From contig DUTL01000294.1 of assembly GCA_012842105.1 (NCBI GenBank), forward strand, positions 1 to 41,393: DNA of 41,393 nucleotides. Reading direction: 5' to 3'. The position numbers and the translations under genes are program-made. This document shows, piece by piece, positions 17,468 through 17,495 of this stretch. Positions within the stretch are counted from its first letter, which is position 1, and the number at the start of each line of letters is the position of its first letter. The notes under the pieces are model-generated. The model was not told the DNA's origin, made no database searches, and saw only the letters and a list, made by a program, of their open reading frames with translations. This DNA comes from Candidatus Fermentithermobacillaceae bacterium (GTDB taxonomy: Bacteria; Bacillota; Sulfobacillia; Fermentithermobacillales; Fermentithermobacillaceae).

Positions 17468-17495
17468 AGTTTACATAATGTATATTATAGGACGT
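17468..17495 (-). other. dif: dif chromosome-dimer resolution site (XerC/XerD, CodV/RipX target)
   Basis: The minus-strand reading is ACGTCCTATAA-TATACA-TTATGTAAACT. B. subtilis dif is ACTTCCTAGAA-TATATA-TTATGTAAACT, so 25/28 positions match and the XerD-side arm is 11/11. On the + strand the central hexamer TGTATA equals that of E. coli dif. The site lies in an ORF-free gap at a + to - strand-bias switch. Confidence 0.75.

Follow-up and report, generated by a model that had tools for sequence, protein, structure and literature searches.

Chromosomal dif sites are defined as 28-bp sequences composed of two 11-bp arms that show imperfect inverted symmetry around a 6-bp centre (PMC5357621). The dif site of Bacillus subtilis 168 reads ACTTCCTAGAATATATATTATGTAAACT in Table S1 of Kono et al. 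2011 (PMC3025954). According to that study, dif lies, across phyla, within 0.00-1.39% of genome length (+/-1 sigma) of the shift in skew, and replication terminates near, and not necessarily at, dif (PMC3025954). In Firmicutes, the activation of Xer recombination by the translocase has been reported as indirect (PMC5357621). Other Xer sites have also been described: difSL is 31 bp long, with an 11-bp centre and the xerS gene adjoining, and difH has its own distinct arms (PMC5357621).

We analysed a stretch of 41,393 nucleotides, hereafter called the window, from an uncultured Bacillota bacterium. It is highly likely that a 28-mer in a long intergenic gap of this window is the chromosomal dif of the bacterium, sited where two replichores converge (Table 1). 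A sequence-only reading had pointed to this 28-mer, and it is present exactly as described there. The plus strand reads AGTTTACATAATGTATATTATAGGACGT, and the minus strand reads ACGTCCTATAA-TATACA-TTATGTAAACT. The architecture is thus 11+6+11, with two 11-bp arms in imperfect inverted symmetry, a 6-bp centre and an inner dyad ATAA/TTAT. We recovered the claimed match of 25 out of 28 positions with B. subtilis dif (left arm 9/11, centre 5/6, right arm 11/11), and the XerD/RipX arm is indeed identical, at 11 of 11 positions, to the B. subtilis right arm. The plus-strand hexamer TGTATA, which had been equated with the centre of E. coli dif, is indeed the same as that centre.

Table 1. Features of the candidate dif region and their coordinates in the window.
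Feature	Coordinates	Strand	Basis
Probable end of one replichore	1..17467	+, leading-strand template sense	GC skew +0.115; 17/19 long ORFs on +
Intergenic gap holding the dif site	17388..18167	.	Between the OppF-type ATPase gene and the NlpC/P60 gene
28-bp dif site (highly likely)	17468..17495	-	25/28 vs B. subtilis dif; syntenic copies in L004-L012 and L026
XerD/RipX-type arm (predicted), TTATGTAAACT on the minus strand	17468..17478	-	Homology to dif right arms
6-bp centre, predicted strand-exchange region (TATACA minus / TGTATA plus)	17479..17484	-	Invariant in close relatives
XerC/CodV-type arm (predicted), ACGTCCTATAA on the minus strand	17485..17495	-	Homology to dif left arms
Probable end of the other replichore	17496..41393	- leading	GC skew -0.045; 15/19 long ORFs on -

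The window contains one match to B. subtilis dif with at most three mismatches, and none was found in 100 dinucleotide-preserving shuffles (0/100). The bare 11-nt right arm, when up to two mismatches were allowed, occurred 11 times in the window for 9.3 expected. The right arm alone being found at chance frequency, the signal therefore resides in the full bipartite site. A second dif-like copy was absent from the 41-kb window, both at up to 9 mismatches out of 28 and at up to 3 mismatches in the 16-nt core. The bases flanking the 28-mer are semi-conserved at positions 17461-17467 (AGATCTT, outside the XerD arm) and 17496-17497 (TA, outside the XerC arm), which gives a footprint of about 35-37 nt. 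These outer bases may reflect extra protein contacts or merely recent common ancestry.

The phylogenetic footprint of the site is the strongest evidence for dif. Copies with zero to three mismatches occupy the same syntenic spot in at least eight related genomes (L004, L005, L006, L007/L008, L009, L010/L011, L012 and L026), whose genes are 64-79% identical to those of the window at the nucleotide level. Among species-representative genomes, the exact 28-mer was detected in only two metagenome-assembled genomes (MAGs), named "uncultured Eubacteriales bacterium" and "Bacillota bacterium AnMBR.bin277". It occurs once in each of them, and each has one flank syntenic with the window (65-79% nucleotide identity). 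Locus L004 has the left flank in common with the window (73-79% nucleotide identity) and locus L005 the right flank (65-76%). In both loci, the sole alignable intergenic stretch is about 37 nt long and centred on the identical 28-mer. The window itself is 99.7% identical to a contig of the metagenome assembly GCA_040364275.1.

A search independent of dif was also done, in which metagenome loci were recruited via the neighbouring NlpC/P60 protein. The loci with the closest homologues of this protein (49-65% amino acid identity; L006-L012 and L026) all carry a copy of the site with one to three mismatches, in the same orientation and 110-1100 bp upstream. Nothing nearer than nine mismatches was found in 58 control loci sharing only the NlpC/P60 domain (L028-L085), and loci with more distant homologues (L013-L025) showed no such site within 10 kb, with the exception of a variant present in L018 and L023. 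Where a locus carries the site, it carries only one. The gene order in L006, L007, L010, L012 and L026 is rluD-pyrE-(small lipoprotein)-dif-NlpC/P60-LysM-lexA-...-mutL-mutS. The small lipoprotein gene was undetected in L010 and L012, and there dif comes after pyrE. The position of dif is constant even where its neighbours change, an opp operon having been inserted beside dif only in the lineage of the window.

Nine sites were aligned together with 40 nt of flanking sequence. Conservation was limited to the 28-mer and a few adjacent bases, and the other intergenic DNA could not be aligned. The bases ACATAA-TGTATA-TTAT are invariant among the eight close sequences, with changes confined to the outer arm positions. 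The centre is invariant in the window, L004-L012 and L026, and only the distant L018/L023 variant differs. Invariant inner arms and centre combined with variable outer arms are the usual pattern of dif sites.

The sequence-only reading had also proposed that the window spans the replication terminus, with a flip of gene orientation at the site and a skew sign change expected near 17.5-19.5 kb. Using the longest ORFs as a proxy, we counted 17 genes on the plus strand and 2 on the minus strand to the left of dif, for 4 and 15, respectively, to the right, which is near the counts given in that reading. The convergent arrangement was retained in all syntenic relatives. On the plus strand, GC skew lies between +0.13 and +0.16 for the greater part of 1-16 kb and between -0.04 and -0.10 over 22-36 kb. 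Total GC skew is positive to the left of dif (+0.115) and negative to the right (-0.045), and AT skew behaves likewise. The sign pattern of the total skew was repeated in L007, L010, L012 and L026, and the left flank of L004 has a skew of +0.126. Raw skew nevertheless tracks gene orientation, as seen for a plus-strand gene at 37-39 kb that has positive skew, and the maximum of the all-position cumulative skew, at 19.7 kb, corresponds to the orientation flip and not exactly to dif.

Because raw skew follows gene orientation, we measured the skew at third codon positions, each gene being read on its own coding strand. Third-position GC skew was +0.038 in predicted leading-strand genes and -0.095 in the six predicted lagging-strand ORFs, all six of which were negative (Mann-Whitney p = 8e-4; p = 9e-4 when pooled with relatives). 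To the right of dif, third-position GC skew is negative in the plus-strand genes when each is read on its own coding strand. The skew asymmetry is therefore more than a side effect of gene orientation: there is a replication-type skew component of about 0.07, whose sign changes across the site. The cumulative G-C curve computed on third positions and intergenic DNA levels off at about 15.7 kb and has its maximum at 18.9 kb. A two-segment likelihood analysis placed the change point at 18,929 (2dLL 20), and dif falls inside its support interval of 15,422-19,877. The expected sign change was thus seen in the window, with a change point at 18.9 kb. In the relatives, whose loci span 21 kb, the third-position change point was noisy. 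Its interval includes dif in L007, starts about 60 bp off in L012 and excludes dif in L010 and L026. Change-point mapping in these loci was set aside as support because of this noise. A plus-to-minus change in skew together with convergent genes gives the direction of a terminus and not of an origin. Given the support interval of 15.4-19.9 kb, it is most likely that two replichores converge within the window. Exact look-ups of the proteins encoded at the window ends, meant to extend the skew analysis, gave no hit or only contigs of at most 2 kb. As far as a 41-kb contig allows, total skew, third-position skew and gene orientation all agree with the convergence that had been proposed.

The polarity of motifs of the KOPS/SRS type, which guide translocases, was dropped as independent evidence. 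The octamer GGGNAGGG is found 12 times in the window, 10 copies pointing toward dif and 2 away, and the single copy of GAGAAGGG points toward dif. As a control, we took the 55 remaining octamers composed of six G, one A and one N. These composition-matched octamers also pointed toward dif in 81% of cases, so that KOPS/SRS polarity adds nothing to the richness of the leading strand in G. Among the words found de novo, those with the strongest skew were polypurine words of the GAAGAAG type, which we attribute to coding-strand bias.

The genes surrounding the site have chromosomal housekeeping functions, encoding a DivIVA-domain protein, LspA, an RluD-type synthase, PyrE, LexA, HflX, MiaA, MutL, MutS and MiaB. 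Pfam analysis also identified the opp genes, NlpC/P60, LysM and a SpoVK-like AAA protein. Left of dif come divIVA, lspA, rluD and pyrE, followed by the lineage-specific opp operon, and the genes to the right include the NlpC/P60 gene, lexA, hflX, miaA, mutL, mutS and miaB. No tRNA and no Rfam family was detected in the window. A patch on the minus strand at 25602-25844 shows 78-81% nucleotide identity in relatives and is more conserved than the neighbouring genes. At this place is an 80-aa ORF, in which a YHS/TRASH-like CGM...HFCS..C motif can be made out by eye. The patch sits between the SpoVK-like gene and an 85-aa ORF (26004-26261) that is presumably hfq. An RNA was considered for this conserved region at 25.6-25.9 kb and discarded, given the lack of an Rfam match and the presence of the small YHS-like ORF.

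The gap that holds dif had been described as 780 bp long and free of ORFs. It does lack long ORFs, and those contained entirely within it measure at most 69 aa. Its last ~100 bp are entered by the 5' end of a 143-aa minus-strand ORF (18062-18493) that overlaps the NlpC/P60 gene. Beyond the 28-mer and a few flanking bases, the gap showed no conservation with relatives except for one 55-nt patch shared with L026. Searches of the gap against Rfam, in gathering and permissive modes, returned only a chance lncRNA match (E = 0.97), and blastn searches against 50,697 phage and 72,556 plasmid records found no match to it. The idea that dif accounts for the long gap did not hold. In L005, L010 and L012, dif is no more than about 110-260 bp away from the NlpC/P60 gene, and the rest of the gap is unconserved; dif is therefore no explanation for its length. 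The additional gap DNA of the window, L006, L007 and L026 cannot be aligned from one locus to another, except for the single 55-nt patch. This patch, at 17847-17900, is 78% identical to L026 and resembles a terminator, with a palindrome GCTTAAAACGCGTTTAAAGC followed by a T-rich run.

On the XerD-arm side, dif is adjoined by a block at 10896-17387 made of a five-gene operon for an Opp/Dpp-type peptide ABC transporter and about 650 bp of upstream DNA. None of the syntenic relatives (L004, L006, L007, L010, L012 and L026) has this 6.5-kb block. In relatives lacking it, dif is found roughly 25-170 bp after the small lipoprotein gene or pyrE. The GC content of the block is 0.45-0.47, versus 0.48-0.50 elsewhere, and neither flanking repeats nor a second dif-like site was detected for it. 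A different situation was observed in L018 and, identically, in L023. There, a dif variant with five mismatches, ATGTCCTATAA-TAGTTA-TTATGTTAACT (2617-2644 in L018), lies 7.4 kb from the NlpC/P60 gene, and a different five-gene opp-like operon (3454-9366) is located between the two. The opp operon is thus on the XerD-arm side of dif in the window and on the XerC-arm side in L018/L023. The possibility that the two operons are orthologues, a single module appearing on both sides, was rejected, since their OppA proteins are 26% identical and their permeases 29%. The opp-like operon of L018/L023 suggests that cargo was inserted next to dif a second time, independently. One could imagine dif as a hotspot for cargo capture, at which circular modules carrying the opp operons were integrated by Xer recombinases in an IMEX-like manner and the second site was lost afterwards, but we regard this as a long shot. 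The pdif modules of Acinetobacter plasmids offer a comparison for such capture, which here would concern a Gram-positive chromosome.

Sites resembling dif were also observed in DNA of tailed phages. Locus L086 (IMG/VR UViG_2508501036_000004), in which ORFs were read by eye as terminase and portal genes, carries a dif-like site, ACTTCCTATAATATACATTATGTAAACT, at 1443-1470. The Bacillus prophage phBC6A51 (NC_004820.1) carries another at about 29.5 kb (3012-3039 of locus L087), which reads ACTGCCTATAA-CATTGG-TTATGTAAACT. Both sites have canonical Firmicutes Xer arms and are located in homologous intergenic DNA. They may serve multimer resolution or Xer-dependent integration. Our literature search found no article mentioning both phBC6A51 and XerD. 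The existence of dif-like sites in Firmicutes phage DNA means that the sequence of a site is, by itself, no proof of a chromosomal role.

The 28-mer could be a real Xer substrate and yet, instead of the dif of the chromosome itself, the mark of a mobile element, either an IMEX attachment or hybrid site or a dif-like site for multimer resolution in a phage or plasmid. Such an origin would fit the near-identical arms of the phage-borne sites in L086 and phBC6A51, the 6.5-kb opp operon that adjoins dif and is absent from all relatives, and the dif variant of another lineage, whose opposite side is occupied by a different opp-like operon. It does not fit a window with a single dif-like copy over 41 kb, with no repeats flanking the opp block and with a housekeeping context free of phage, plasmid, integrase or replication genes. 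The blank blastn results for the gap in phage and plasmid records also speak against it, as does the same chromosomal position of the site in at least eight diverged relatives without the opp block. The mobile-element reading is thus largely refuted, and we hold it to be very unlikely. Even less credible, and in our view extremely unlikely, is that the resemblance to dif is coincidental and that the 28-mer is an AT-rich palindromic operator or promoter element of a neighbour, the NlpC/P60 gene or opp. A weak sigma-70-like match does overlap the site, and the site is upstream of the NlpC/P60 gene in most relatives. However, no shuffle reached a 25/28 match with an exact 11-nt XerD arm, and conservation of the site persists although the NlpC/P60 gene lies anywhere from ~110 bp to ~1.1 kb away, and 7.4 kb away in L018. 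Moreover, the upstream neighbour has been replaced by opp in the window, and the conservation pattern is the one generally expected of dif sites.

The 28-mer could also be a real dif in a window that is not the terminus, the flip then being a local strand switch such as an old inversion boundary. Room for this is left by a view limited to 41 kb, by a skew partly driven by gene orientation and by the noisy change points of the relatives, as well as by the conclusion of Kono et al. 2011 that termination takes place near but not necessarily at dif (PMC3025954). The replication-type component of the third-position skew nevertheless flips at this place, and the convergent arrangement is kept in all syntenic relatives, which makes a local strand switch quite unlikely. 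The reading that we prefer is therefore a chromosomal dif at the convergence of two replichores. The dif call is very probably correct, and the site very probably an ordinary, expected feature of the genome.

If the 28-mer is a chromosomal dif, its mode of action can be proposed by analogy with Bsdif and CodV/RipX of B. subtilis and with dif and XerCD of E. coli (PMC5357621). A CodV/XerC-like recombinase would bind the left arm, ACGTCCTATAA, and a RipX/XerD-like recombinase the right arm, TTATGTAAACT (PMC5357621). In a dimer of sister chromosomes produced by homologous recombination, a translocase of the FtsK/SpoIIIE/SftA type would position the terminus, and the two dif copies would come into synapsis at the closing septum. 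Monomers would then be restored by two pairs of strand exchanges, one after the other, across the 6-bp centre TATACA. Binding, catalysis, the order of strand exchanges and the role of the translocase are all predicted here by homology, and the placement of the site within the chromosome as a whole is likewise a prediction. No tyrosine recombinase gene, and hence none of the XerC/XerD type, and no gene of the FtsK/SpoIIIE family was evident in the window, which was covered by Pfam analysis from 6.4 to 25.8 kb and by inspection of the translations elsewhere.

The site provides a terminus landmark for a group of uncultured Bacillota known only from metagenome bins. Its practical value is modest: such a landmark can be used for orienting and scaffolding contigs, for checking misassemblies and for placing replichores. 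It adds a well-supported dif with a TATACA centre to the Firmicutes set and leaves the understanding of Xer/dif biology unchanged. The only leads of some wider interest are the insertions adjacent to dif and the dif-like sites borne by phages.

Among known systems, E. coli dif with XerCD and FtsK has the same architecture, and its TGTATA centre is found on the plus strand of the window, whereas the outer arms are unlike. Overall, 19 of 28 positions of E. coli dif match the window site, and the inner arm bases CATAA/TTAT are common to both. IMEX attachment sites and the dif-like sites of phages or plasmids (CTXphi, VGJphi, cer/psi) have the same Xer-binding arms. Unlike them, the window site comes without an element or a second site and has a conserved chromosomal position. 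A site of the XerS/difSL or XerH/difH type was discarded, as the site has a 6-bp centre and Bsdif-type arms and is not adjoined by a recombinase gene. The B. subtilis system (Bsdif, with the XerC-like CodV and the XerD-like RipX) has in common with the window site its architecture, 25 of 28 positions, the right arm, the location at the skew shift point and the phylum. The window site differs from Bsdif by T3G and G9T in the left arm and by a centre changed from TATATA to TATACA, and also by its host, an uncultured anaerobic lineage of Bacillota.

Close counterparts are also found among the dif sites predicted in the entries of Kono et al. 2011 used for comparison (PMC3025954), a data set that does not include the organism of the window. 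The site predicted in Natranaerobius thermophilus has both arms identical to those of the window site, including 11 of 11 positions in the left arm (PMC3025954). The one predicted in Listeria and in Staphylococcus (S. haemolyticus), ACTTCCTATAATATATATTATGTAAACT, matches it by inspection at 26 of 28 positions (PMC3025954). The XerD arm is identical at 11 of 11 positions in these Natranaerobius, Listeria and Staphylococcus predictions (PMC3025954). The criteria by which such sites were validated, i.e., palindromic arms and nearness to the skew shift, fit the window site as well (PMC3025954). Within the parts of the Kono table that were searched, the string ATAATATACATTATG, which has the centre TATACA between inner-arm bases, occurs only in three Corynebacterium entries (PMC3025954). 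The TATACA-centred site of the window is a trivial variant and belongs well within the family of Firmicutes dif sites that Kono et al. predicted.
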